Assembly (NCBI GenBank): GCA_963668625.2
Contig: CAXXKA010000008.1
Span: 160,001 to 224,000, forward strand
From: an uncultured candidate division Zixibacteria bacterium
GTDB lineage: Bacteria; Zixibacteria; MSB-5A5; UBA10806; 4484-95
Length of the DNA stretch: 64,000 bases
Reading direction: 5' to 3'
This document shows positions 28,716 to 53,678 of the stretch, piece after piece. Both the position numbers and the translations under genes were made by a program. Each line of letters begins with the position of its first letter. Position 1 is the first letter of the stretch. Below the pieces are notes generated by a model, which saw nothing but the letters and a program-made list of their open reading frames with translations, was not told where the DNA came from and did no database searches.

Positions 28716-29334
28716 GCGTTGCTCAGAAACGTCCCCTAGATGCGTACTGGCATCCGGAGCCAGTCCAGATTCTGTTGCCATGTTTCATTGCCAACCGGCG
28801 AGCAACCGTTCTAAGACCATCAGAGCCACAGTTCAGGTAGTCTTCAGTCATATACTTATCACCTATACGGTCGAAAAGACGAGCGAGTTGTTCGTCTGAT
28901 TCAGAAATCCCGAGCTTCACCGCAAGATTGAGAATGAGGACACGCATGTCTCGCTGATACAGTACCTATGACCCCAGTTCGGCAAGTCATGATTCCCACG
29001 ATCCTGTCGATCCAAACGGATGAAAGACATTGCGAACCTCCTGCGCGAGACGTAACCAGGAGCGAGCATTGTCATGTCTCTCCATTCGCTTAGCGAACTT
29101 CAAGATTTAATAAACTCAACTATATTTAGCCCTCAAGGGCCTACCGAGCTAAATAGGCATTTGTGATGAAATCTCATCCGCGTATCAACAATACGGTAAC
29201 AATCACGGTATATATGTGGTATTTAGGGTGGTTTCTGATGACTAAAAGTGGAGGCCAGATTCACCGTAACACGCTTCCAGATAATAGAATAAGATAAATA
29301 TCAACAAGTTAGTAAAATATCGCCGATAGCAATT

Positions 29335-37146: not shown

Positions 37147-38544
37147 ATGGATTATTACAAACGAATCAAAATCGCCCAAATTCTCAAACAGGCCGATAAG
37201 GCCGTCGATGATGCCATCGTTTTAGGCTGGGTGCGCACCCGGGCCGATAAACCCAATATGACCTTTTTGCAGGTCAATGATGGCAGCACACTTAATAATC
37301 TGCAGATATTCGTGGAAAATCCCGAACGGTTCGCTGATATCGAGAAGATGAAAACCGGCAGCTCGATCCGCGCCCAGGGCAAACTCGTGCCCGCCCCGGA
37401 TCGTCCGCATAAGATAGAACTTCACCCGGAAAGCCTGACATTATTAGGCGAGTGCCCCTCCGATTACCCGATGCAGAAGAAACGTCACTCGTTCGAGTAC
37501 CTTCGCGAGATAGCTCATCTGAGGCCCCGCTCCAACACGTTTGGGGTGATCAACCGGTTCCGCTCCAAGATGGCTTACGCGGTGCATAAATTTTTCCAGG
37601 ACAGGGATTTTTACTACATCCACTCGCCCATAATCACGGCCACTGATGCCGAGGGCGCCGGCGAGACATTCCGGGTAACCTCGCTTGATATGAAGAACCT
37701 GCCCATGGCCGAGGGCGCTATCGATTACAACGAGGACTTTTTCGGCATGGAGACATTCCTGTCGGTATCGGGACAGCTCGAGGCCGAGATACTGGCTACG
37801 GCAATCGGGGATGTTTACACGTTCGCGCCCACTTTCCGCGCCGAGAACTCCAACACCAGCCGTCACCTGAGCGAGTTCTGGATGATCGAGCCGGAGATGG
37901 CGTTCTGCGACCTGTTCGAGGATATGACCTTAGCCGGTGAGTTCCTCAAGTACCTGTTCCAGTTCGGACTCGAGAACTGTGCCGAGGAGATGGCGTTTTT
38001 CGACAAGTGGATTGACAAGGACCACATCCGGATAAAGACCCTGGAGAAAGTGATCAACACCGATTTCATCCAGTGCGAATACGGCGAGGCGGTGGATATA
38101 CTGATGAAGGCCAAAAAGAAATTCGAGTTCCCGGTTAGCTGGGGAACCGATTTGCAGTCCGAACACGAGCGATATCTGTGCGAGGAGTATTTCAACGCGC
38201 CGGTGATGGTGTACAACTATCCCCGCGATATCAAGGCGTTCTACATGCGCGTAAACGATGATGAGAAAACCGTAGCGGCCGTGGATGTCCTGGTGCCGCT
38301 GGTGGGCGAGATTATCGGTGGCTCCCAGCGCGAGGAGCGTTTCGATGTGTTGGAGAGCCAGATCGAGAAGTTCAATATCCGCAAGGACACGGTTGACTGG
38401 TATCTCGATTTGCGTCGATTCGGCACGGTACCGCATGCCGGTTTCGGGCTGGGGTTTGCGCGGGTACTGATGTATATGTCGGGGATGACCAATATCCGTG
38501 ATGTCATCCCGTTCCCGAGAGTGCCCCGCTGGGCCAAGTTTTAG
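37147..38544 (+). CDS. asnS: Asparagine--tRNA ligase
   Basis: GWVRT, NDGS, AHLRPRSN, FRAENSNTSRHL, EIIGGSQRE and PHAGFGLG motifs. Confidence 0.96.
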   Translation: MDYYKRIKIAQILKQADKAVDDAIVLGWVRTRADKPNMTFLQVNDGSTLNNLQIFVENPERFADIEKMKTGSSIRAQGKLVPAPDRPHKIELHPESLTLLGECPSDYPMQKKRHSFEYLREIAHLRPRSNTFGVINRFRSKMAYAVHKFFQDRDFYYIHSPIITATDAEGAGETFRVTSLDMKNLPMAEGAIDYNEDFFGMETFLSVSGQLEAEILATAIGDVYTFAPTFRAENSNTSRHLSEFWMIEPEMAFCDLFEDMTLAGEFLKYLFQFGLENCAEEMAFFDKWIDKDHIRIKTLEKVINTDFIQCEYGEAVDILMKAKKKFEFPVSWGTDLQSEHERYLCEEYFNAPVMVYNYPRDIKAFYMRVNDDEKTVAAVDVLVPLVGEIIGGSQREERFDVLESQIEKFNIRKDTVDWYLDLRRFGTVPHAGFGLGFARVLMYMSGMTNIRDVIPFPRVPRWAKF

Positions 38545-42430: not shown

Positions 42431-42484
42431 GGGCGGTTAGCTCAGCCTTATAGAGCACCCCGACTTGTAGTCGGAAGGGCCGCA
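42431..42484 (+). pseudogene. Truncated tRNA-Val-like duplicate with altered anticodon arm
   Basis: GGGCGGTTAGCTCAG..TAGAGCAC..GGGCCGCA matches the 5' part of the downstream tRNA, but the anticodon arm is CCGAC-TTGTA-GTCGG and there is no T-loop. Confidence 0.55.
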
Positions 42485-42506
42485 TTGAAAATTAGATAGT
42501 TACTTT

Positions 42507-42580
42507 GGGCGGTTAGCTCAGTTGGTTAGAGCACCTGCCTTACACGCAGGGGGCCGCAGGTTCGAGTCCCGCACCGCCCA
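42507..42580 (+). tRNA. tRNA-Val (TAC)
   Basis: Cloverleaf: acceptor GGGCGGT/ACCGCCC, anticodon arm CCTGC-CTTACAC-GCAGG, TTCGAGT T-loop; one A-C mismatch in the T-stem. Confidence 0.92.
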
Positions 42581-42873
42581 TTTGTCCCGCAACGACTTAC
42601 GAGGATTTAGCCAACCTCAAAAAACGCACTATGCCGATTTTATGCCAGGGATTTGGCATATTTAATCTTAGCTGATCACTATTGGCCCAATTTATAAGGT
42701 TCAAATTGGTGCAAAAAACACTACTGATATATCGCTATCGTTACCTTATTGTTGACGTGAGTGTTTCCTTTATAAGTAATATTGAATAATTAACACAGTG
42801 AGTTCTGAACGGCTACAATAAAAGTACAGGCTTTAGTTTGATTTTATCAAAACTGTCTCTTAGATTTTTGCTA

Positions 42874-42903
42874 AATCTGTCGAAAGGGTTCTGAAGACGT
42901 ACA
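42874..42903 (+). repeat. Left 30-bp inverted repeat bracketing the Liv-like module
   Basis: AATCTGTCGAAAGGGTTCTGAAGACGTACA; 28/30 match to the reverse complement of 49995-50024. Confidence 0.8.
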
Positions 42904-42989
42904 CTCCTTAAAAATTAGGTTTTAGCTTGAATCTAAGTTTTTTAGAAGTTATATTTTTAACAATTCGAAAAAAACGATGGAGCGTGTTT

Positions 42990-43145
42990 GTGGTTTCTAA
43001 AAAGAAAGCTTATGTTCGGTCTTTTAAGATGATTTATATTCGACTTGCCAATGACGTTCACCGAAAGCTGAAAATGGAAACCGTAAAGCAAGCGACTACT
43101 ATTCAGAAGTGGGTAGCTAAACTCATTGAAGAAAAATTATCATAA
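42990..43145 (+). CDS. Small ribbon-helix-helix (CopG/HicB-like) DNA-binding protein
   Basis: MIYIRLANDVHRKLK...IQKWVAKLIEEKL beta-alpha-alpha pattern; GTG after GGAG (start uncertain). Confidence 0.6.
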   Translation: MVSKKKAYVRSFKMIYIRLANDVHRKLKMETVKQATTIQKWVAKLIEEKLS

Positions 43146-43182
43146 GGAGTGAAGACAAATTTTAAATTTAGGAGAATAGACC

Positions 43183-44337
43183 ATGCGTATTTTGCAAAAA
43201 ACAGTGCAATCGTTTTCTATTCTGTTACTCACGTTTTTTTTCATCCAATTTTTTCTTATTGGATGCGGTGAAAGAGATAATTCAGTCAATGTGGGTGTGA
43301 TTCTTCCCCTAACCGGTGGTGCTGGGAAATACGGTATTGATGCCAAAGAAGGAATTGAACTAGCGGTTAGTTTAACAAAACCTAGAGGAGAATTAGCCGG
43401 CAAAACCATAAAACTTGCAATTGAAGACGATCAAACATCTCCATCACAAACCGTCAGTGCGTTTCAAAAACTTATTGCCTCTATAAAACCATCTGCTGTA
43501 ATTGGGGGGATGACAAGCACTAGTGCTCTTGCAGCAGCCCCGATTGCTGAGCAAAATGGAGTAGTTTTTTTGTCTCCCTCAGCGTCAACTCCTGATCTTA
43601 CAGATGCGGGCGATTTTATATTTCGAAACGAACTATCGGATGCTATTGGAGGAATTGAACAAGCAGTTTTTGCTAGAGATTCTTTAGATTTATTTAAAGT
43701 AGCTATTTTGTACATAAACAACGACTACGGTATTGGAGTAAAAAATGCTTTTACTAACACTTTCAAGAGCTATGGTGGCAGCATTGTTTGTAGTGAGCCA
43801 TTTGAAGCCGATGCTCAGGATTTTAGATTTGTACTGACCAAAATAATCGCAAGCAAGCCACAAGCACTATTTTTCATCGCATATAAAGAATCAATACCTA
43901 TTCTTAGGCAATTAAAAGAACTTGGAGCCAAATTTAAATTACTAAGCACGCCAGTTTTTGAAGATCGTGATGTATTAAATCAACTTGGTGACCTAGCGGA
44001 TGGAGTTATCTATGTATACTACGGTGGTTTTTCCGTGGACGCGGACAACCAATTAGTTAAGAATTTTGTAGACAAATTTAAAAACGCGTACGGACGTGAA
44101 CCAGGCTACTATGCTGCACTAGGATTTGATGCGATGAATTTACTAATTAATGCGATGGAGAATGGTGGTCTTTCAAGTGAGGAAATACGTGATGCTTTAT
44201 ACAAGATAAAGGATTATAGGGGGGTAACAGGTTTAACGAGTTTCACAAAGGATGGAGATGTTGAAAAACCAGTGATTTTTAAAGATGTGGAAAACGGGCA
44301 GTTTGGGATTTGGCAACGGAATAACGAAAATGAGTGA
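43183..44337 (+). CDS. LivJ/LivK-type (HAAT) ABC substrate-binding lipoprotein
   Basis: Lipobox LIGC; VGVILPLTG, IEDD, NNDYG and GVTGLTSF..DGD motifs. Confidence 0.9.
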   Translation: MRILQKTVQSFSILLLTFFFIQFFLIGCGERDNSVNVGVILPLTGGAGKYGIDAKEGIELAVSLTKPRGELAGKTIKLAIEDDQTSPSQTVSAFQKLIASIKPSAVIGGMTSTSALAAAPIAEQNGVVFLSPSASTPDLTDAGDFIFRNELSDAIGGIEQAVFARDSLDLFKVAILYINNDYGIGVKNAFTNTFKSYGGSIVCSEPFEADAQDFRFVLTKIIASKPQALFFIAYKESIPILRQLKELGAKFKLLSTPVFEDRDVLNQLGDLADGVIYVYYGGFSVDADNQLVKNFVDKFKNAYGREPGYYAALGFDAMNLLINAMENGGLSSEEIRDALYKIKDYRGVTGLTSFTKDGDVEKPVIFKDVENGQFGIWQRNNENE

Positions 44338-45796
44338 TAAGGTAAAGCGTTGGATATTTTGGGCAGCCGCTACAATTATATCAATTCTTGTCTCTTCGGC
44401 ACTTGTCGCAAATGTGCTTGATCCAACCTTGGAGGATATATTAAGGAACTGGCTTGGTAAGGATTCTGTAGAAATCCCATTTTGGGTCGAATTATTAGAA
44501 ACAATAGTGGTCGCCACTCTTACATTCCTTAGCTTAATATATCTAAGTAGTATAGCATATTTAAATCTTCGCGGTGTTCATGAAGAGGTGTTAAAAGAGT
44601 TAATGACTAAAACCATTGAAGATGATTTAAGGCGAGTCCACTTAGAAGTAATGAGAGATACTATCAATGATTTAATTAATAAGGGTTTACGAACAGTACA
44701 TGAGCAAATATTAAATGACACATTTAATGTCCAGGTAGCGAATAAGCTTAAGATTGTAATGAGTGCTTTAATGGAAGAATTGGCTAGGACCTCCGAGGCA
44801 GAAACATATTTTGCATATCATACGCTACTTAAACATACAACCGGAATGCGTAATTTAATAAATAGGATTGTAGATCTTCCGTGTCATCCTACGACAATGA
44901 GTGTACTGATTGATGATTATGGGAAGAAGGCCAATCAGTCCAAATTCCTGGTAGATTTTCCCACATTTCTTAAACTCGGAGAGACTCTGGTAGGGGTTTC
45001 CAAAAAGATGTGTTTTGTAAATACTACGCCACCATATGAGTGGTGGTATCTTAATCAATCTGGCCGAATAACTGAAACAACCGAGGCAATTAAATCCTAT
45101 AGGAATTGTATAGGTGAAAAGCTCACTGCAGGTGCTCAAGTAGGTAGAATTACCTTATTGAGGCATGAGGAAGCACTTACGTCGTTTTTAAAGTATGAAC
45201 TTGAAGGATATCATCAACGACGCGGAATAAATATCTTTGGGTCAGATCTTGATGACGAATCTGCCCTACCGGTCGTAGAATGGTTTCAGATTATTTTAAG
45301 GACTATTCAAACGCGTTTACAGTCGACAAAGGCGTACGCTGACGAAACACTGAAGAAAATTGAATCGGCCAAAAGTTCTAAAGAAAAGCTGATAAAATTA
45401 CTCGACCATATAAATCCAGATAGAAAAAAGTTTACTGGCGAGTTTGAACAGTTGTCAAAAGAATGTTCAGATCTAGTTATGGCTGATTTTAGTCCTTTGC
45501 ATTCACCCGAGAATGATGGTATTTATGTAATAAAACAACATCTAACTGAAGGTATGCAAGATGATTTTGAATCAGTTATGAGAGAAGAGGGTATTTTCTA
45601 CGACAATAATGACAGAGCGTATTTGCTTAGGATGGAAGAAGCAAATAGCGTAAATGTACTAATAGCAACTGTCAAAACGCTTTCAGAATCAGATTTGGGA
45701 AAAACAAATTTTAAAAGAATTCTGGATAACTTTGTTAACGCAGTTGGACAATCTCAGGCAGTTGGTTATTTTAGGAGTACTGCAAAGGCTTATTAA
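44330..45796 (+). CDS. Hypothetical protein: two N-terminal TM helices, helical repeats, large unknown soluble domain
   Basis: ATG overlaps the binding-protein stop (ATGAGTGA); LRGVHEEV/LRRVHLEV/LRTVHEQI repeats. Confidence 0.75.
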   Translation: MSDKVKRWIFWAAATIISILVSSALVANVLDPTLEDILRNWLGKDSVEIPFWVELLETIVVATLTFLSLIYLSSIAYLNLRGVHEEVLKELMTKTIEDDLRRVHLEVMRDTINDLINKGLRTVHEQILNDTFNVQVANKLKIVMSALMEELARTSEAETYFAYHTLLKHTTGMRNLINRIVDLPCHPTTMSVLIDDYGKKANQSKFLVDFPTFLKLGETLVGVSKKMCFVNTTPPYEWWYLNQSGRITETTEAIKSYRNCIGEKLTAGAQVGRITLLRHEEALTSFLKYELEGYHQRRGINIFGSDLDDESALPVVEWFQIILRTIQTRLQSTKAYADETLKKIESAKSSKEKLIKLLDHINPDRKKFTGEFEQLSKECSDLVMADFSPLHSPENDGIYVIKQHLTEGMQDDFESVMREEGIFYDNNDRAYLLRMEEANSVNVLIATVKTLSESDLGKTNFKRILDNFVNAVGQSQAVGYFRSTAKAY

Positions 45797-45797
45797 T

Positions 45798-46703
45798 ATG
45801 GATAAAGAGCATCCCTATCGCAATACGATGGTCATAGTTTCTGGAGTCGGCTGTCGTAAAGCGGAACGTATTTTCGATCAAAAGACACATGATCCAATTC
45901 TATTGGATGGCATAACATATAAAATGAACATCGGGGCATCGATAGCAAAACTCTTGGCTGTGGCTGGTGCAAGAATATTCATGTTGGCAAGAAATGAAGC
46001 TTCATTAGAGGCCGTGCATAATCATATTGTTAAATTAGAAGGTGTTGATAGCTCGAATTTAACATATTGTGCGATAGACTTACTTGAAAAGAAGCGAGTT
46101 TATAAGCTCTTAGAAGGCGTTTCTTCTTCAGAAAGGATCTGGCTAGTTCATAGCGTTGGGCTAGGTTCGGAAAATTATAGTGATACGCATGGGAATCCAT
46201 ATTTACCATTTCATGAGTTAAATTCGGACTTATTATCGCTTGAATATGAATTGCCAGTTAAAAGTCTTCTACATTTGATCGCGCCATTAAAACGTAGGTT
46301 TGACAATCAAGATTGTTCAAAATTAGTTGTAGTTTCCTCAATGAGTGGTATCAGACCATATATATATGGTTTTTCTCATGCTGCTGCTAAGGCCGGGCTA
46401 CACCACGCCATCAGAAGTCTTGGTCTAGAGCTGTCTTATTCAAATCCTAGAATACATGTATCAGAAATTCTTCCGGGCATAGTGGATACTGGATTATATG
46501 ATTCGCCTGAAGTAATAGATGCCGTTTCTCATATTGCCGAATCTTTTGGATATACAGGCTCAAGGAAGTTGACTGAGCATAATTTCCCGTTAATGTCGCC
46601 AAAAGATGTAGCATCTGCCATTCACTATTGTTTGACTACTAAATCTCACGTGTTGTCAATGAATCTTATCCCTCCAGGACAATTCGTTAATCAGGGCGCA
46701 TGA
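45798..46703 (+). CDS. Atypical SDR-family oxidoreductase
   Basis: VIVSG...IGASIA (with insertion), VSSMSG, HAAAK in place of YxxxK, PGIVDT. Confidence 0.8.
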   Translation: MDKEHPYRNTMVIVSGVGCRKAERIFDQKTHDPILLDGITYKMNIGASIAKLLAVAGARIFMLARNEASLEAVHNHIVKLEGVDSSNLTYCAIDLLEKKRVYKLLEGVSSSERIWLVHSVGLGSENYSDTHGNPYLPFHELNSDLLSLEYELPVKSLLHLIAPLKRRFDNQDCSKLVVVSSMSGIRPYIYGFSHAAAKAGLHHAIRSLGLELSYSNPRIHVSEILPGIVDTGLYDSPEVIDAVSHIAESFGYTGSRKLTEHNFPLMSPKDVASAIHYCLTTKSHVLSMNLIPPGQFVNQGA

Positions 46704-46707
46704 TGAT

Positions 46708-47603
46708 ATGATTGACCAGCCTAGTTTAATAAGTAGTGCGATAGTATATGGAATTATTGCAGGGAGTATATATGTTTTAGTTGCCCTTGGGTTTACTATT
46801 ATTTATCGGACAGTGAAGTTTTTTCATTTCGCCCATGGAGCGGTTTATGCAGTGGGGGCATATGCAGCCTATAGTCTTATCATCGGGCTTGAGTGGAATC
46901 CAATCCTGAGTTTTTTTTTGCCATTTTAATTTCAAGTATCGTTGGAGTATTAATTGATCGAGCGGTTTACCTTCCTCTCCGTAAACGCAAAGCATCGAAT
47001 CTTGTATACTTACTGGCTTCGTTTGGTATCTTTATATTCATACAAAATGTCTTCCAATTGCTTTATGGCGCGCAGATATTATCCATCCGTACCGGTGAGG
47101 TGAAAGTCGGGCACAGCGTATTCGGAGCGATTATAACCGATATACAGATACTCATACTTGTGGTCAGCTTAGTCTTATCATCAGGCTTGTGGATCTATAT
47201 CAAATACACCAAGCTCGGCAAAGCCATGCGCGCAGTTGCCGATGATCCTGTGGCGGCACGCGTTGTCGGGATAAACTCCGAGCGTGTTATTTCATGGTCT
47301 TTTGCTATTGGTTCTATGTTAGCAGGAGCTGCCGGAGTTTTAATCGCTTACGAGACAAACCTTGAGCCGACCATGGGTATGAATGCAATACTTAAAGGAA
47401 TAATTGCTTCAATAGTAGGCGGTATCGGTTCAATACCAGGGGCTATGTTGGGTGGGTTCTTTCTAGGACTGGCTGAGAACCTCGGAATCTGGAAAATACA
47501 AGCGGGCTGGAAAGATGCAATAGCTTTCGCCATACTAATTATATTTTTGCTTTTTAGGCCAGGCGGAATTATGGGTGTAAACATTCACAAAGATAGGCTT
47601 TAG
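46708..47603 (+). CDS. livH: LivH-like ABC permease, frameshifted at the T9 run (46911-46919)
   Basis: LVALGFTIIY..FAHG in the first frame; GKAMRAVA and IVGGIGSIPGA in the second; one extra T joins them. Confidence 0.8.
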
Positions 47604-47605
47604 CT

Positions 47606-48475
47606 GTGGAATATATTGTTCATATACTGATAATAACAGGCATTTACATTATCCTTACTCTGAGCCTGAACCTCGTTGTAGGTTATACGGGGATGCCTGC
47701 GCTCGGTCACGCTGCCTTTACTTGCATGGGTGCTTACACGTCATCATTACTTGCATTAAACTATGGCATCACTCCCTGGCTTGGATTAGTTGTAGGAGCC
47801 ATATTTGCATCTATATTGGGAATAATAATAAGCTTGCCCTCAATACGCCTAAAGGGCGATTACTTTGCTTTAGCGACTTTCGGTTTGGGCATAATAGTAT
47901 ACTCTATATCTAAAAACTGGGTAGGGCTAACAAGAGGGCCATTAGGCTTACCTGGCATACCGGGATTCAGTATATTCGGATTTGAATTGTCCAGTGTCTG
48001 GACATATATCTTGCTGGTCGTAGTATTTATTGCAATCACCTACATAATAATGCGAAATATAGTCAACTCACCATTCGGCAGAATATTGAAAGGCATACGC
48101 GAGGATGAAGTAGCTTCACAAGCTATGGGAAAAGATGTAAATCGCTACCGAGTTATTGTATTTATTGTGAGTGCGTTTTTTGCGGGTATTGCTGGAAGCT
48201 TATACGCTCATTATATCACGTTCATCGATCCCTCAAGTTTCACAGTGATGGAGTCAATCACTATACTCCTGATGGTAGTATTTGGTGGTATGGCAAGCTT
48301 AGGTGGATCTTTCGTCGGTGCAGCGATACTTGTAATATTCCCTGAATTGCTTCGTTTTCTGGGAATGCCTAGTTCAGTAGCGGCTCCGCTCCGTCAGATG
48401 ATATATGGCTTGCTGTTGATTCTACTGATGATTAAAAGGCCTCAGGGGATATTGGGGAAGTACAGGTTTAGATAA
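47606..48475 (+). CDS. livM: LivM-like ABC permease
   Basis: SLNLVVGYTG..LGHAAF, RLKGDYFALAT, IREDE and RPQGILG motifs. Confidence 0.88.
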   Translation: MEYIVHILIITGIYIILTLSLNLVVGYTGMPALGHAAFTCMGAYTSSLLALNYGITPWLGLVVGAIFASILGIIISLPSIRLKGDYFALATFGLGIIVYSISKNWVGLTRGPLGLPGIPGFSIFGFELSSVWTYILLVVVFIAITYIIMRNIVNSPFGRILKGIREDEVASQAMGKDVNRYRVIVFIVSAFFAGIAGSLYAHYITFIDPSSFTVMESITILLMVVFGGMASLGGSFVGAAILVIFPELLRFLGMPSSVAAPLRQMIYGLLLILLMIKRPQGILGKYRFR

Positions 48476-48479
48476 AAGT

Positions 48480-49253
48480 ATGCCGTTACTAGAACTAAAA
48501 AATATCAAAAAAGATTTTGATGGCGTAAGAGCTGTCGATAAACTCTCAATGGAGATTTCCTGCGGAGAGCTTGTTGCATTAATAGGTCCTAACGGTGCTG
48601 GCAAAACTACTGCTTTTAATATTATTACCGGGTTTATTAAAGCAAATGAAGGAAAAATAACTTACAATAACGTAGATATAACAAGTAATCCACCACATCA
48701 AATAGCATTGTCCGGAATCGGGAGAACATTCCAAAATATCAGACTCTTCCCGCAACTTACGGTGCTTGATAATGTGCTACTTGCTTTAAAGTACAAGTCG
48801 GGTGACTCATTATTTAGTGCTATCTTGCAAACTCGAAACATGAAATCAGAAGAAAAATCAAATATAGAAAAAGCAATGGAATTACTAGATTTTGTCAATA
48901 TTGCAGAAAAGCGGGATCAATTAGCTCAGAACATGTCTCATGGCCAGAGACGTCTCTTAGAAATAGCAAGAGCCATGGCTTTAGATCCACAGCTATTACT
49001 ATTAGATGAGCCGATGTCCGGGTTATCGCCAACGATGATCATCGAAATGAAGAATATCATCCAGGAATTAGAATCCAAAGGAAAAACTATTCTTTTTATT
49101 GAGCATAATATGGATGTGGTAATGAATCTGGCTAAAAGAATTATTGTACTTAACCATGGAAAAAAGATTGCGGATGGAATGCCTGATGAGATTAGGTCAA
49201 ATACTGAGGTAATAAACGCCTATCTAGGGCGGAGGTCCAATGGCGCTGCTTGA
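48480..49253 (+). CDS. livG: LivG-like ABC ATPase
   Basis: GPNGAGKTT, GRTFQNIRLF, LLDEP, IEHNM and AYLG motifs. Confidence 0.9.
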   Translation: MPLLELKNIKKDFDGVRAVDKLSMEISCGELVALIGPNGAGKTTAFNIITGFIKANEGKITYNNVDITSNPPHQIALSGIGRTFQNIRLFPQLTVLDNVLLALKYKSGDSLFSAILQTRNMKSEEKSNIEKAMELLDFVNIAEKRDQLAQNMSHGQRRLLEIARAMALDPQLLLLDEPMSGLSPTMIIEMKNIIQELESKGKTILFIEHNMDVVMNLAKRIIVLNHGKKIADGMPDEIRSNTEVINAYLGRRSNGAA

Positions 49254-49965
49254 TGTTAATAACCTTGATGTGTATTATGGCAAGGTAAAAGCGTTAGAAA
49301 ATGCGTCCTTCTTTGTTGAAAAATCAGAGATTGTAGCGATGATTGGCCCGAATGGCGCAGGTAAATCTACGGCATTAAAAGCTATAGCATCACTATTAGA
49401 TAATTACGATGGATCAATTAGCTCGGGAAGTATTAGTTTCAATGGAAAAAATATAAAGGATTTAAGAACAGATCAATTAGTTAAACTTGGTATTGCCATT
49501 GTGCCGGAAGGTAGACGAGTTTTTCATTCGCTGACCGTTAAAGAGAATTTAGAAATGGGCGGAATCAGCGTTGATTCTAAAGATAAACTTGAAAAACAGC
49601 TAGAGAAAGTCGTGAGTCTTTTCCCCGTGTTGAAGGATCGCTTTAAGCAAAAGGGGGGCACATTATCCGGAGGAGAACAGCAAATGTTGGCACTTGGCAG
49701 AGCGTTGATGTTGAATCCAGGTTTGCTTTTGGCTGATGAACCATCATTAGGTTTATCACCGAATTATATAGAAGCTATATTTGACAAGTTAACGGAAATA
49801 ATTAAAACAGGAACAGCTATATTATTGGTAGAGCAAAACGCACGCAAAGCCCTCGAAATAGCTCACCGCGGATATCTATTTGGTATTGGTAAAATAATAA
49901 AAGATGATTCTTGCGAAAACCTTAAGAAAGATGAACAGGTGCAGAAAGCCTATTTAGGTGGCTAG
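49240..49965 (+). CDS. livF: LivF-like ABC ATPase
   Basis: GPNGAGKST, VPEGRRVF, LSGGEQQML, LVEQN and AYLGG motifs. Confidence 0.9.
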   Translation: MALLDVNNLDVYYGKVKALENASFFVEKSEIVAMIGPNGAGKSTALKAIASLLDNYDGSISSGSISFNGKNIKDLRTDQLVKLGIAIVPEGRRVFHSLTVKENLEMGGISVDSKDKLEKQLEKVVSLFPVLKDRFKQKGGTLSGGEQQMLALGRALMLNPGLLLADEPSLGLSPNYIEAIFDKLTEIIKTGTAILLVEQNARKALEIAHRGYLFGIGKIIKDDSCENLKKDEQVQKAYLGG

Positions 49966-49994
49966 GAAATTCACTTCAGATCCTTCTGCCCACA

Positions 49995-50024
49995 TGTACG
50001 TCTTCAGAACCTTTTTGACAGATT
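49995..50024 (-). repeat. Right 30-bp inverted repeat bracketing the Liv-like module
   Basis: TGTACGTCTTCAGAACCTTTTTGACAGATT on the + strand. Confidence 0.8.
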
Positions 50025-50062: not shown

Positions 50063-51472
50063 ATGAATACTGAACACAAGTTAGACAATCATATAGCTAA
50101 AATCGACGATGAAGTTGTAGCAACTCTATACAGAAGATTAGTAGATTATGTTGCAAGAAAATTACCAGAATCAGAAATTAATTTTAATAGCGAATACACT
50201 TACTTTAAATATAACGGAAAAAGATTCTTAAGATTCTTTGCGCAAAAAAGCAAAATGGCTATAGACGTATTCGGTGATTACTATCAATATCCAAAAACTA
50301 AAACTATTAAACGGGGATCCAAATTTAAAACTGGTGAAATAAATTTTCACATTTATTCAACATCTTCATTTAAAGAGATAACTAAAATAATTGATTGCTC
50401 TTATAACCTTCAGATATCTAAGGAAAACAAAAATAAAAGTGATAAGATTATATTTTTTAATATCGGATGGATGAAATATTATCAAGGATTATCATCAGAT
50501 TTTGACGATGATATCAAGTTTGGCGGAGCTTTTGTAGATAAAAATAGTTTTGGCCACGAAATATACAATTTTCAACCTCATTCAGGAAAGCTATATGGGT
50601 ATGTACAACCTGTATATAAAAAAAGCCATGAAATGGGGACAATCAACATAAATCGACTAAGTGGTGTTAGATCAAACAAAAAAATTAAAGATGTATTAGT
50701 CGTTTTCGTAGCAAAATCACCAATTACAGAATCCAGAAGGATCGTAGGGTGGTATAAAAATGCTACAGTTTATAGAAATTATCAAGAACCTCCTCCAAAT
50801 TCAAACAGGATTTATAATGGTGAAAAAATAGGGTATTATACTGAAGCCAATTTAGCTGACTGTAGACTACTTAAAGATGAACAGCGAGAGAACTCTAATA
50901 TATTGATACCAGCTGGAAAAGGTCAAAAAGGAATGGGGCGTTCTAATGTATGGTATGCCGATAAAGAAACCAATAAGCCGCTAGTGAAAAGCGTTTTAAA
51001 ATTTATTAATAATTATTCAGGAGAGAAAGAAACTGATCTTGAGTATCAAGAAAGAATACTAAAGGCTAAACCATTAAAGTTACCTTCAGGACCTATTTCC
51101 CGCCCAGCTCGATCAGGCGGAATCAATAAACAATGGAAGAAGGATGCTTCAATTGCAAAAGGAGTTCTGAATAAATATAAATTCAAATGTGAAGTTGATA
51201 AAAAGCATATAACATTCATTTCTAAATCGACTAAAAATAACTATGTTGAGGCACATCATTTAATTCCTATGAGTGCGCAGGATGATTTTTATTACAGTTT
51301 AGATGTACCTGGAAATATTATTTCACTATGTCCGATTTGTCATCGCTTAGTACATTTTGCTACGAAAAGTAAAAAACAAAAAATACTTCAATTTCTCTTT
51401 AAAAAAAGGATTGATGAAATCAAGGCGCATGGACTAGAAATAACATATGAAAAATTGACTAGTTATTACTAA
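50063..51472 (+). CDS. Multidomain HNH endonuclease (possible modification-dependent restriction enzyme)
   Basis: C-terminal CE...H.TF...YVEAHHLIP...N..SLCPICHRLVH; central NIGWM..Y.G/GHE.YNF/IVGWYKNA domain; N-terminal DUF5655-like segment. Confidence 0.8.
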   Translation: MNTEHKLDNHIAKIDDEVVATLYRRLVDYVARKLPESEINFNSEYTYFKYNGKRFLRFFAQKSKMAIDVFGDYYQYPKTKTIKRGSKFKTGEINFHIYSTSSFKEITKIIDCSYNLQISKENKNKSDKIIFFNIGWMKYYQGLSSDFDDDIKFGGAFVDKNSFGHEIYNFQPHSGKLYGYVQPVYKKSHEMGTININRLSGVRSNKKIKDVLVVFVAKSPITESRRIVGWYKNATVYRNYQEPPPNSNRIYNGEKIGYYTEANLADCRLLKDEQRENSNILIPAGKGQKGMGRSNVWYADKETNKPLVKSVLKFINNYSGEKETDLEYQERILKAKPLKLPSGPISRPARSGGINKQWKKDASIAKGVLNKYKFKCEVDKKHITFISKSTKNNYVEAHHLIPMSAQDDFYYSLDVPGNIISLCPICHRLVHFATKSKKQKILQFLFKKRIDEIKAHGLEITYEKLTSYY

Positions 51473-51999
51473 CTTGTCAATTGGGTGGATAGTAATGCCG
51501 GATCATATTAAATTAGTTTATTATTCAGCATATAATATCATGGGAATATCACCAAGATAAAGCACCCTGCTAACCAAGCCTATAGCCAGATCTGCTCCTA
51601 TCTCTGTTTCTTATTAAATACCAAAAAGTTATACGTACAAACAAATCAAATGTATTAATAATATGTCAATATTATGCCGTTGATTAATTATAATTAGTCA
51701 TCATATCACAACCCAAATGTTCGGTAAGTAGAAATTCTCTTTTCGACACCAGAGAGCACCAGAAAGCACCACAGATATACCGCTGATGTTACCATATTGT
51801 TGACGCGAATAAAGTTAGGTCTTTATATATTTCCAAAGTTACAGAAATCACAGTGTCTGGTGTTTTCCTTTAAATTTTGTTATTTGATCAAGTTTTTTTA
51901 GAAATAGGTGTATGCCAAATAGGAAATGGGCGATAGCGTTAACCTTAGTTATTATTTATGGATACATCTGCCGAATTTAGTGCAACATAATTAATATAT

Positions 52000-53327
52000 C
52001 ACTACTGTCCCAACGTTAGTTGAATAGTTTCAATTGGTTAGGGATTTCGGTTATAATTTCTTCCGTATCAATATCGCTAAGTCCTTGTTCTATAGGGATT
52101 TTCTCAAACAGGGTAACGCTTAAAATCTGTAGAATTTGATATAAGCTCGCTCTAAGATTTAAACGTTTCTTCACTATCGCTACCAGCACATAGATGCTGA
52201 TTGCTATCCATATCTGAGTCTTGACTGCATTGTCTGATAGCCCGAAAAACTTCTTTATCCTGAGATGGCTTTTAATCCATTTGAAGAACAGTTCCACCTG
52301 CCAACGACAGCGATATAGTTCAGCAATTGTTATTGCCGGTAAATCAAAGTTATTGGTCAGAAAGATAAAGCGTTTGTTCAATATCTGATCAATATAACTT
52401 ATGCGTCTGAGCTTCTCAGGATAATCTAATCCGGCATAATAACCTTTAAGCATAACCGTCTGGTCACTTCTTATTCCGGCTTTTACATTCTTGGGATGAG
52501 AGTAAAGGCGTCTGTAGTTGAAGTTCTTCTTGGCACGAGTTACAAAAAATGCCAGAGATTTGTGAATGCCGTATAGACGAGCATAATCTATATAAGCCTT
52601 GTCCAGAATATAAATCGCGCCGGCTTCCACCATCAGATTATCCAGGATATTTACATCATGAACCTTTCCGGGAGTAACAATTACCATGCTGGGTATATTG
52701 CCGCGCAAATCCAGAAGAGTGTGCATCTTTATAGCTCCCTTCCTTCGCCTGAATTCAGCCCAGGGGAAAAGAGACAAACACAAATCGATGGTAGTCGAAT
52801 CGAGAGCATAAACAGTCTGCTCCAATTCCACTCCGAAAGGCTCGTTAACATACAACCCTCTGGCCGTGCTGATAAGTGTCCTGGTAAAATCCTCATAAAT
52901 GCGATAATCCCTCACCTCATTGGCATGAGCTAGAGTATTGCGTGATACTTTGCCTCTGATACCCATATGATAAAGCTTAACATGAGCCGCCCTCAGGCAA
53001 GCCTCGATATCCCGCAGACTCTCTCGGTAAGTAAGCTGAGCAAAAGCCATGCAAAGATATTGGTCCCAGCAGGAAAAGCTTTTGATCTTGTAATTGCCCC
53101 GGTAACGTCCCACACATTTGAGAAATTCGTATCTCGGGACAAAGTCCATAAGCTGCGATAAAAGAATCTTGCCTGAATGCATCAGCCATCTCCTTCCGAG
53201 TTCCCCCCTCGGAAGTATGGCTAAATCGGCTTTCCAAGTTCAAATCGAAAAATTCTATTTTTTGCTAAAATCCCTTGCCAGTTATCTACTTACAGCAACT
53301 CAAAAACAAAACGTTGGGACAGTAATG
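52000..53327 (-). mobile_element. IS4-family insertion sequence, apparently complete
   Basis: TIRs CACTACTGTCCCAACGTT / AACGTTGGGACAGTAATG; 9-bp TSD TTAATATAT. Confidence 0.92.
52016..53182 (-). CDS. IS4-family DDE transposase
   Basis: ALDSTTIDL, LDKAY and YRCRWQVELFFKWIK (YREK-like) motifs. Confidence 0.95.
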   Translation of the reverse strand: MHSGKILLSQLMDFVPRYEFLKCVGRYRGNYKIKSFSCWDQYLCMAFAQLTYRESLRDIEACLRAAHVKLYHMGIRGKVSRNTLAHANEVRDYRIYEDFTRTLISTARGLYVNEPFGVELEQTVYALDSTTIDLCLSLFPWAEFRRRKGAIKMHTLLDLRGNIPSMVIVTPGKVHDVNILDNLMVEAGAIYILDKAYIDYARLYGIHKSLAFFVTRAKKNFNYRRLYSHPKNVKAGIRSDQTVMLKGYYAGLDYPEKLRRISYIDQILNKRFIFLTNNFDLPAITIAELYRCRWQVELFFKWIKSHLRIKKFFGLSDNAVKTQIWIAISIYVLVAIVKKRLNLRASLYQILQILSVTLFEKIPIEQGLSDIDTEEIITEIPNQLKLFN

Positions 53328-53678
53328 TTAATATATATTATTTAACCCAATACTCTATAAAAAATTTGACTAATCTTTATTCTACTAGCTATAATATTAA
53401 AGATTGGGAATGGAGCGAATATCTTGAGATGTTAACTTATTTTGGTCAGCAATCCCAAAAGGTTTTCGAGAATTTTAGACATTAAGTATTTTATGGATTT
53501 ATTTGCCTGAAATAAAGGCGTGATCTGGAAAGGTGTTTTATAATTAATAGTAGTATATTATTCTCAACAAATTTATTTATGGCAGTATGCCCTAAAATAC
53601 CCCATAAGCAAAATAGCTTAAACTCAAATGTAGATCTATATAGGTTTTCTATAACCAATATAGATGCTGTAGGCTGAA

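Follow-up and report, generated by a model that had tools for sequence, protein, structure and literature searches.

In this work, we analysed an operon of about 7.1 kb that lies between two 30-nt inverted repeats in a 64,000-nt stretch of DNA (the whole of it referred to as the window) from an uncultured bacterium of the candidate division Zixibacteria (genome G000, 4.3 Mb). Our results suggest, with a probability that we put at roughly 55%, that the repeats are a pair of insertion-sequence (IS) scars, and that the operon between them is one allele of a polymorphic Liv-type (HAAT) importer with an exchangeable cassette, serving the uptake and the tailoring of a small molecule. The chassis would be formed by livH-livM-livG-livF, preceded at a subset of the loci by the gene of a small ribbon-helix-helix (RHH) regulator, and the cassette by the gene of the substrate-binding protein and two further genes, called here X and Y. 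A first-pass annotation had read the whole block as a mobile or invertible unit bounded by the repeats. The gene order that it gave, namely RHH, binding protein, a protein with two transmembrane (TM) helices, a short-chain dehydrogenase/reductase (SDR) and livHMGF, stands, except that livH is not an intact gene and is split into two open reading frames (ORFs). The tight coupling that it described is also present, with neighbouring ORFs abutting or overlapping, and no transposase lies between the repeat arms.

The evidence for a cassette comes from the relatives of this operon. The LivM subfamily to which it belongs occurs in 10 of 285 genomes of the Zixibacteria phylum (the LivM of the window is 68–82% identical to those of the nine other loci), and the first-pass proposal to search for Liv-type operons with variable genes between the binding protein gene and livH was fruitful: in all nine phylum loci whose 5' part is readable, two genes that differ between loci occupy this place. 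In the pair G039 and G136, the chassis proteins are almost the same (LivH 92%, LivM 97%, LivG 96%, LivF 95% and RHH 90% identity), whereas the binding proteins are 36% identical and the middle genes are unrelated. Accordingly, blastn finds 92% identity up to 16 nt before the RHH stop codon, no alignment across the next 3.66 kb (G039) or 4.99 kb (G136), and 88% identity from 32 nt into livH through livF. The pair G257 and G252 behaves likewise, with 84% identity from 30 nt into livH. Since the flanks are near-identical and the binding protein-X-Y block between them cannot be aligned, this block is an exchanged cassette. The allele of the window tells the same: its binding protein is closest to that of a Clostridia allele (57%) and shares 36% identity with that of G001, a genome of the same genus, while its LivH and LivM are closest to those of G001 (84% and 81%, respectively). 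Judged from these alignments, the three genes are exchanged as a unit within a conserved chassis, the binding protein co-varying with its two partners, and the swap could take place by recombination in the conserved flanks. The operon family as a whole is clearly horizontally mobile.

What do the cassettes encode? In the order X, Y, they carry a 2-TM protein with a phospholipase D (PLD)-like fold and the SDR in the window, a 2-TM ORFan (P0010) and an S-adenosylmethionine (SAM) methyltransferase in G001, a 258-aa unknown protein and a ThiH/HydG-like radical SAM enzyme in G012, a polyprenyl-synthase-like protein and a 2-TM unknown in G039, a 2-TM unknown and a polyprenyl synthase in G123, a SPASM radical SAM enzyme and a 735-aa unknown in G136, a 2-TM unknown and a B12-type radical SAM enzyme in G245, two unknowns in G252, and a polyprenyl-synthase-like protein and an AAA+ ATPase in G257. 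According to a hydropathy scan, two N-terminal hydrophobic helices recur in five of the nine loci (G000, G001, G039, G123 and G245), and the G012 cassette has a single-helix protein. Four loci with 52% LivM identity also have radical SAM, methyltransferase or prenyl-synthase genes before livH. The arrangement of the window (binding protein, 2-TM protein, SDR, livH) was found in a contig of a Clostridia metagenome-assembled genome (MAG) and in a metagenome contig, with livM and livG present on the longer of the two. The identities of the window proteins to these loci are 57–59% for the binding protein, 35% for the 2-TM protein, 47–49% for the SDR and 74% for LivM. The LivM subfamily is present in one of five genomes of the order of this Clostridia MAG and in one of 401 sampled genomes of its phylum. 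Such patchy spread, variable inserted genes and a co-varying binding protein are not those of the ordinary, vertically inherited liv operon that the first-pass annotation had considered as the alternative.

Several further observations were made at the related loci. MATE exporter genes stand just upstream of the binding protein gene in G245 and G252, and would fit a cycle in which a compound is made, exported and recaptured. Small ORFs of 62–70 aa are present in the G245, G123, G253 and G254 loci; a hidden precursor peptide, like those of ribosomally synthesized and post-translationally modified peptides, was considered for the window cassette and rejected, there being no intergenic room for it. 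In G245, a gene for a 128-aa four-helix protein, similar to 23S-rRNA-intervening-sequence or bAvd proteins, lies between livH and livM (L043:10573–10959), the chassis being standard in other respects. In the metagenome contig, livH ends after some 50 codons and gives way to unrelated sequence (L009:3999–4447), reflecting either a truncated operon or a chimeric contig.

The 2-TM protein of the window (P0001) has no Pfam, NCBIfam or PADLOC match. It has five relatives at about 35% identity in an index of 5.8 billion sequences, and its family counts 21 representatives at E ≤ 0.001 among 1.84 billion proteins. The AlphaFold2 (AF2) model (pLDDT 78.6, and above 90 over most of residues 220–500) consists of a two-helix membrane hairpin, a low-confidence coiled-coil stalk, 60 residues longer than in the relatives, and a C-terminal domain (residues 217–500). 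The structural comparison proposed in the first-pass annotation gave no match at E ≤ 0.001 when Foldseek was run against the PDB, and the VIA-align wide search alone matched residues 217–500 with 16 PLD-fold entries (Z 8.5–10.6). No conserved HxK of the HKD motif was found in alignments of 6 and 22 sequences. From the two TM helices and the basic N-terminus, we infer that the C-terminal domain is probably cytoplasmic. The SDR has the Rossmann-type adh_short domain (E 2e-19), but in the motif S-H-A-A-A-K a His is aligned to the catalytic Tyr of the PDB entries 9fe6 and 2c07, and the glycine-rich loop bears a 22-residue insert; the His and the insert are conserved in the three members of the family. 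A complex prediction for P0001 (residues 170–503) and the SDR, run without controls, scored 0.00, which speaks neither for nor against an interaction. Neither hhalign (probability 0.6%) nor phmmer relates P0010, the 2-TM partner of G001, to the P0001 family, and P0010 has no relative among 5.8 billion sequences of a word-indexed database. No usable lead came from the ESM Atlas, either for P0001 (best score 0.86, unnamed clusters) or for P0010, whose single-sequence model there has a pLDDT of 0.38.

As for the other components, the binding protein has an N-terminus ending in LIGC, which we read as a lipobox, and its best PDB relatives are branched-chain or other amino-acid binding proteins (3td9, E 2.5e-45). 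The RHH-like ORF, for which a longer version starting at a TTG at 42927 is possible, has no Pfam match, but it is 61–63% identical to small ORFs at the same position in G039 and G136, and the G039 homologue (63%) matches HicB, RHH_10, Omega_Repress and CopG.

We propose that the lipoprotein binding protein captures a small ligand specific for the cassette, probably amino-acid-like, that LivHMGF imports it, and that the two cassette proteins also act on it, on the inner side of the membrane. Their chemistry could be a tailoring after uptake, or the making of a compound that is later recaptured; the nature of the ligand and the direction of the chemistry are suppositions here. In the allele of the window, the pair would be a membrane-anchored PLD-fold protein without HKD and an SDR with His for Tyr. 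That the enzyme pair makes or modifies the ligand of the importer, as already put forward in the first-pass annotation, seems a reasonable proposal. Taken one step further, these operons might be lock-and-key uptake systems, in which a conserved livHMGF chassis (with the RHH gene in some loci) receives swapped three-gene cassettes (a binding protein, a fast-evolving membrane-anchored protein and a tailoring enzyme) and is gated by a run of nine T (T9) in the permease gene. Each cassette would make and recognise a private small molecule, which might serve as a signal, as a public good in the manner of metallophores, or as a cue in conflicts. We consider this more detailed picture rather unlikely. 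If true, it would define a new class of polymorphic import locus, horizontally spread across phyla. An ABC importer whose specificity module (the binding protein and two more proteins, cytoplasmic or membrane-bound) is swapped wholesale between near-identical chassis is of interest in any case, as such exchange is usual at loci under diversifying selection, like those for pherotypes, siderophore receptors and defence. The cassettes also supply ORFan membrane proteins whose partners are SDR, methyltransferase, radical SAM and prenyl-synthase-like enzymes, and the dedicated binding protein of each cassette could serve to fish out its ligand.

The alternative that we take most seriously, even if we consider it unlikely, is that these operons are defence or conflict systems. 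The variable cassette (an ORFan membrane protein and an enzyme) would be an effector/sensor pair under diversifying selection, and the importer would take up or sense a cue of extracellular or phage origin. The cassettes vary strongly and are rich in ORFan or near-ORFan proteins, with P0010 and the small P0001 family as examples, and their distribution is patchy. Known defence systems repeatedly feature 2-TM proteins and radical SAM enzymes, and a phase-variable T run would suit a contingency locus. Moreover, defence genes lie beside three of the loci (a type IV restriction-like HNH gene in the window, HmaC with E 6.8e-130 in G001, and HKD plus Snf2 in G012), a neighbourhood that fits a conflict role equally well. 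However, PADLOC had no matches for the RHH, the binding protein, P0001 or the SDR, and only generic domain matches for the other cassettes. We know of no place for a binding-protein-dependent importer in defence systems, and the neighbours of the Clostridia locus are housekeeping genes (tyrS and a deoxynucleoside kinase).

It is improbable, in our view, that the operon is an ordinary amino-acid importer, before whose livH unrelated genes landed at a recombination hotspot, with no functional link to it. The chassis is indeed a standard LivHMGF set, the LIV-I/HAAT components are complete by Pfam (a binding protein, two permeases, with livH in two frames, and two ATPases), and the best solved relatives of the binding protein bind branched-chain or aromatic amino acids. 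The NCBIfam equivalog cut-offs are all missed (LivJ/K 120.8 versus 477 bits, LivM 185.7 versus 366, LivG 257.4 versus 362 and LivF 244.3 versus 441). Against unrelated insertions speaks that the two genes and that of the binding protein are swapped jointly, that the same three-gene block, tightly coupled, is found across phyla, and that every readable member of the LivM subfamily has the insert, while the more distant liv operon of G029 (LivM 40%) has none between the binding protein gene and livH.

The reading frame of livH is broken at the T9 run: the second ORF, called from 46893 to 47603, overlaps the first one (46708–46929), and adding a single T, or shifting by -1 on T_TTT_TTG, brings back the sequence S-F-F-F-A and a full-length permease. 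Exactly nine T are present at the same position of livH in nine of the ten phylum loci, in three codon contexts: AGC-T9-GCC, in frame (G012 and G016); TC-T9-ATC, in frame (G245, G252 and G257); and G-T9-GCC, out of frame (G000, G039, G123 and G136). G001 and four outgroup loci lack the run, and the Clostridia locus has T7. The out-of-frame carriers belong to four genera, and in all four genes the 227 downstream codons are open, with a pN of 0.04–0.18 versus a pS of 0.55–0.87 (near saturation), values that show strong purifying selection on this frame. The C-terminal part of the window LivH is 70–84% identical to its relatives, and G123 has no start codon able to give a separate C-terminal protein. 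More than 1,500 database proteins belong to this LivH/LivM subfamily at E ≤ 1e-60. Among the 120 best relatives of the C-terminal part, five more proteins, encoded on other contigs, are in the shifted frame and either begin at the site or read through it: P0036, P0041, P0100, P0037 (named Planctomycetes) and P0050. Runs of A/T are not limited to nine in the assembly, which has seven of length 10. A run of nine A in Thermus dnaX and a run of U in Shigella mxiE drive transcriptional slippage (PMC1088944). These data suggest that the frameshift is a conserved feature, overcome perhaps by slippage or by T9/T10 switching. To give full-length LivH, the RNA polymerase would have to slip and add one U, the ribosome to shift by -1 on U_UUU_UUG, or the run to switch between T9 and T10 (phase variation), and the importer would thus be made at a low or switchable level. 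The conserved T9 could be a new example of a transporter gene whose expression depends on slippage or is phase-variable.

An inactivating frameshift, or an assembly error, in livH would make of the operon a decaying relic, idle in G000. The split gene, the IS scars and low GC content of what would be a decaying island, and a depth of about 4x go in this direction, but all the other ORFs are intact and coupled, the identical out-of-frame T9 is found in four genera at saturated synonymous divergence with low downstream pN, and the shifted frame recurs in five further contigs, so that we hold this explanation to be improbable as well.

The inverted repeat described in the first-pass annotation is real: its arms, of 30 nt each, are complementary at 28/30 positions and separated by 7091 nt, and they are the only two copies of the repeat at ≤3 mismatches in the window, with none in 100 dinucleotide shuffles. 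The left tip lies 86 nt before the RHH start and the right tip 29 nt after the livF stop. Our results show that these arms are the right-end tips of a decayed IS3-family element. In the genome (contigs labelled C6, C8 and C10), the 16-nt tip GTTCTGAAGACGTACA occurs at seven sites versus one for a control pattern, and the repeat is present at five sites besides the two arms. The homology of the left arm runs outwards to 42828 (88–90% identity over 73–78 nt) with C8:255370–255442, C8:1005587–1005664 and C6:831386–831462, all of which lead on into transposase remnants, whereas the right arm is 29/30 identical to the tips of the right inverted repeat (IRR) at C8:255412–255441, C8:1005588–1005617 and C6:831433–831462, with homology ending at 30 nt. 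The same end, at C8:255k, C8:1005k and C6:831k, has 344–445 nt of homology into IS3-type orfA/orfB remnants, and the ORFs at these three sites end ...YYNNQRYHESLDNLTPADVYYGR... The C6 copy, of about 1.5 kb, has orfA and a broken orfB that match the IS3-family transposase model NF033516 (E 9.3e-13 and 2.8e-38, respectively), below the whole-protein cut-off, the proteins being fragments; its orfB part also matches IS481 (E 3e-36). IS3-family elements are expected to terminate in CA. All the right ends terminate ...GACGTACA, with a sharp homology boundary at ...CGTACA, and a candidate left end in L005 begins TGTATCTTGTCAG, which gives the 5'-TG...CA-3' ends. The candidate left end of the C6 copy, TGTATCTTGTCAGAGCC, is unlike the right end, and a search allowing 8 substitutions found copies of the right-end type only, which indicates that both window arms are right-end fragments.

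No complete IS is present at the site: only 76 nt and 30 nt remain, without a transposase between or beside the arms. Both tips point inwards, facing the operon, and the IS bodies, expected outside, are gone. Given these inward tips and the outward homology of the left arm, the arms cannot define a transposon that contains the operon, and the block is neither mobile nor invertible today through them. As the first-pass annotation had foreseen for the opposite case, the repeat turned out to be a common dispersed one, with no link to this operon. That the block is a self-contained mobile or invertible element with 30-nt ends, moved in trans, is largely refuted and in our estimate extremely improbable: the repeat does flank the operon tightly, related transposase remnants exist elsewhere in the genome and the operon family moves horizontally, but the inward tips are the opposite of transposon-end polarity, every genome copy of this IS is decayed or truncated, the 19 related loci (258 kb) contain no match to the repeat at ≤2 mismatches, the contigs (not the reads) of two public runs of one sample at about 4x depth show no joint of an inversion or excision, and the exchange seen in the relatives has its borders at RHH and livH rather than at the outer limits of the operon. 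The two runs, whose contigs carry the stretch unchanged, may be the source data of the assembly itself; a third run, X3, contains hardly any of the stretch, and no RNA run contains it. G000 and G001 have no synteny around the operon, or downstream of tRNA-Val, beyond the liv genes, and no empty-site allele is definable; a peptidase match between the two genomes, tried as synteny, proved to be a repeated domain. The arms would testify to IS insertions, or rearrangements, that happened long ago in a variable, GC-poor region beside tRNA-Val. As a conjecture, they may once have been the inside ends of a composite transposon, the tips turned towards its cargo. The repeat is an ordinary IS scar and should not be taken as a new mobile element.

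More IS debris is found nearby. A third, degenerate copy of the tip, GTTCTGAACGGCTACA, lies at 42802–42817, 85 nt upstream of the left arm, and an exact 14-mer, AGGTTTTAGCTTGA, which is the start of the 76-nt IS-end fragment, recurs at 42917–42930, 14 nt past the tip; together they suggest nested or tandem IS-end debris. The right tip carries TTGACA directed towards the HNH gene, 17 nt before a weak -10-like TAAATG seen by eye, and this promoter-like element could be the reason for the retention of the 30 nt. A 20-nt remnant of the same tip at C8:566524–566543 is about 250 nt from C8:565938–566276, the G000 counterpart of a G001 gene located about 12 kb downstream of tRNA-Val, and hints at large IS-mediated rearrangements.

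Besides the defence neighbours mentioned above, several points weigh against our preferred reading of an exchangeable uptake-and-tailoring cassette between IS scars. The RHH gene is present in only 3 of the 10 phylum loci. One cassette partner is usually an ORFan and there are only two genes per cassette. Some cassette genes, such as that of the AAA+ sigma-54-type ATPase of G257, fit a tailoring role poorly. All the genomes compared are MAGs. For T9, one of the two runs, in which the organism has a depth of about 4x, breaks its contigs at the T run, and a systematic or shared miscall of T10 as T9 is possible. As to a composite-transposon origin of the scars, no IS body, outer end or target duplication remains.

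Table 1. Features of the operon and its borders in the window
Feature	Coordinates	Strand	Basis
tRNA-Val (TAC), landmark	42506..42581	+	ARAGORN; Rfam 70.3 bits
IS3-family right-end (IRR side) remnant, 76 nt, tip at 42903; includes the left arm (42874–42903)	42828..42903	+	
Motif ATATTT(T/G)TAACAATT upstream of RHH	42951..42965	+	Alignment of G000 with G039/G136
Small RHH-type regulator, 51 aa, GTG start	42990..43145	+	Homologues in G039 and G136
Substrate-binding protein, Peripla_BP_6, LivJ/K-like	43183..44337	+	Pfam, E 2.5e-55
P0001, 2-TM, coiled-coil and PLD-like fold	44330..45796	+	AF2 model, structure comparison
Atypical SDR, HxxxK	45798..46703	+	adh_short, E 2e-19
livH, N-terminal part, 73 codons, TAA just past the T run	46708..46929	+	BPD_transp_2 positions 2–59
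T9 run in livH, candidate slippage site	46911..46919	+	Sequence; conservation in the phylum
livH, C-terminal part, shifted frame, 227 codons after the T run	46920..47603	+	BPD_transp_2 positions 55–269
livM permease	47606..48475	+	Pfam, E 4.2e-49
livG ATPase	48480..49253	+	ABC_tran and BCA_ABC_TP_C; LivG model, 257 bits
livF ATPase	49240..49965	+	ABC_tran; LivF model, 244 bits
IS3-family right-end remnant, 30 nt, tip at 49995 towards the operon (right arm)	49995..50024	-	
HNH nuclease, similar to type IV methyl-directed restriction enzymes; outside the operon	50063..51472	+	Pfam HNH_2/HNH, weak; PADLOC mREase_IV, E 2.4e-9

The surroundings of the operon (Table 1), with a GC content of 0.31–0.43 versus 0.45 genome-wide, agree with the first-pass annotation in that the left arm is 293 nt downstream of tRNA-Val and an HNH nuclease gene, starting at 50063, is the neighbour on the other side. 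In the relatives, tRNA-Val is about 55 nt after a conserved gene (37147–38544 in the window), and here about 4 kb intervene. A tRNA-like 5' fragment at 42432–42478, about 30 nt before tRNA-Val, has a D-arm, an anticodon stem-loop (which would read TGT) and the start of a T-stem, and is called by neither ARAGORN nor Rfam. The intervening 4 kb and this fragment point to a rearranged tRNA hotspot. Beyond the HNH gene, an IS4-family element at 51987–53337 (DUF4372 and DDE_Tnp_1; ORF 52016–53182, minus strand) has five further copies in the genome that are 100% identical; unlike the decayed IS3-type element, it is currently active.

Predicted sigma-70 promoters and terminators between 42500 and 50200 are not above the shuffled expectation (23 versus 24.2 and 7 versus 5.1, respectively). 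The motif at 42951–42965 is the sole upstream stretch conserved between G000 and G039/G136, and could be the promoter of the operon or an operator. The window also has a dispersed element, some 70 nt long, at 42712–42760, 51740–51813 and 29185–29248, and in about eight more copies in the genome (e.g. C8:675259, 988547, 1015561 and 1073908, and C10:429466). It consists of three CACCAGA-like direct repeats, followed by GTTACCGTATTGTTGAC(A/G), and looks like an upstream activator site with a -35 box. It is conserved, in several copies, in the relatives. One copy is directed at the operon, roughly 230 nt ahead of RHH, and several other copies are followed by a GGCGGC...GCCGCC hairpin.

The literature searched, which did not cover subscription journals, gave no account of Liv-type operons that harbour variable genes, and as far as our searches show, neither the polymorphic operon nor its conserved T9, both of them variations on known kinds, has been described before. 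Similarly to the LIV-I system of E. coli (LivJ/LivK-LivHMGF; HAAT, TC 3.A.1.4), the window operon has a Peripla_BP_6 binding protein, two BPD_transp_2 permeases and two ATPases, one of them with a BCA_ABC_TP_C tail. It differs in falling below all the NCBIfam Liv cut-offs, in the two extra genes before livH, in the exchangeable binding protein, in the RHH gene in front and in the T9 of livH. Composite transposons such as Tn10 and Tn5 have inverted IS ends around their cargo. The arms resemble this arrangement in their homology to an IS3-type right end, their CA ends and their inside-end-like disposition, but the window retains only 76 and 30 nt, with no IS bodies, outer ends or target duplications.

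Importers co-transcribed with enzymes that make or process their own ligand are known from the Lsr (AI-2) operon and the cnt operons for staphylopine and pseudopaline, and in opine metallophores the enzyme variants and the receptor specificity co-vary. The transporter family of the window operon is different from these, its enzymes are unrelated and it has no exporter; to our knowledge, the swapping of cassettes within one chassis has not been described for the Lsr and cnt systems. The Bacillus comQXP pherotype locus has a variable block between conserved flanks, in which the receptor co-varies with a modifying enzyme, ComQ, that is polyprenyl-synthase-like. A polyprenyl-synthase-like gene is likewise present in three of the nine cassettes and in one outgroup locus. 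In contrast to comQXP, no gene for a precursor peptide is visible in the packed cassette of the window, and the receptor is the binding protein of an importer and not a histidine kinase.

The C-terminal domain of P0001 is predicted, from its model, to share its fold with Nuc, NucT, Zucchini, BfiI, the N-domain of SauUSI and the non-catalytic sugar-binding domain of TrmB (125–150 residues aligned, with an rmsd of 3.0–4.1, for Nuc, Zucchini, SauUSI, BfiI and TrmB). It lacks the HxK(x)4D of PLD-fold proteins, the His and Lys of its close relatives being unconserved across the 22-sequence family, and compared with single-domain members of this fold it adds a helical insert, the two TM helices and the coiled-coil stalk. 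Finally, livH resembles Shigella mxiE and Thermus dnaX (PMC1088944) in its run of nine A/T and in overlapping ORFs that one inserted nucleotide would fuse. It differs from them in that it is a membrane permease gene and in that its run is kept in in-frame and out-of-frame orthologues alike.

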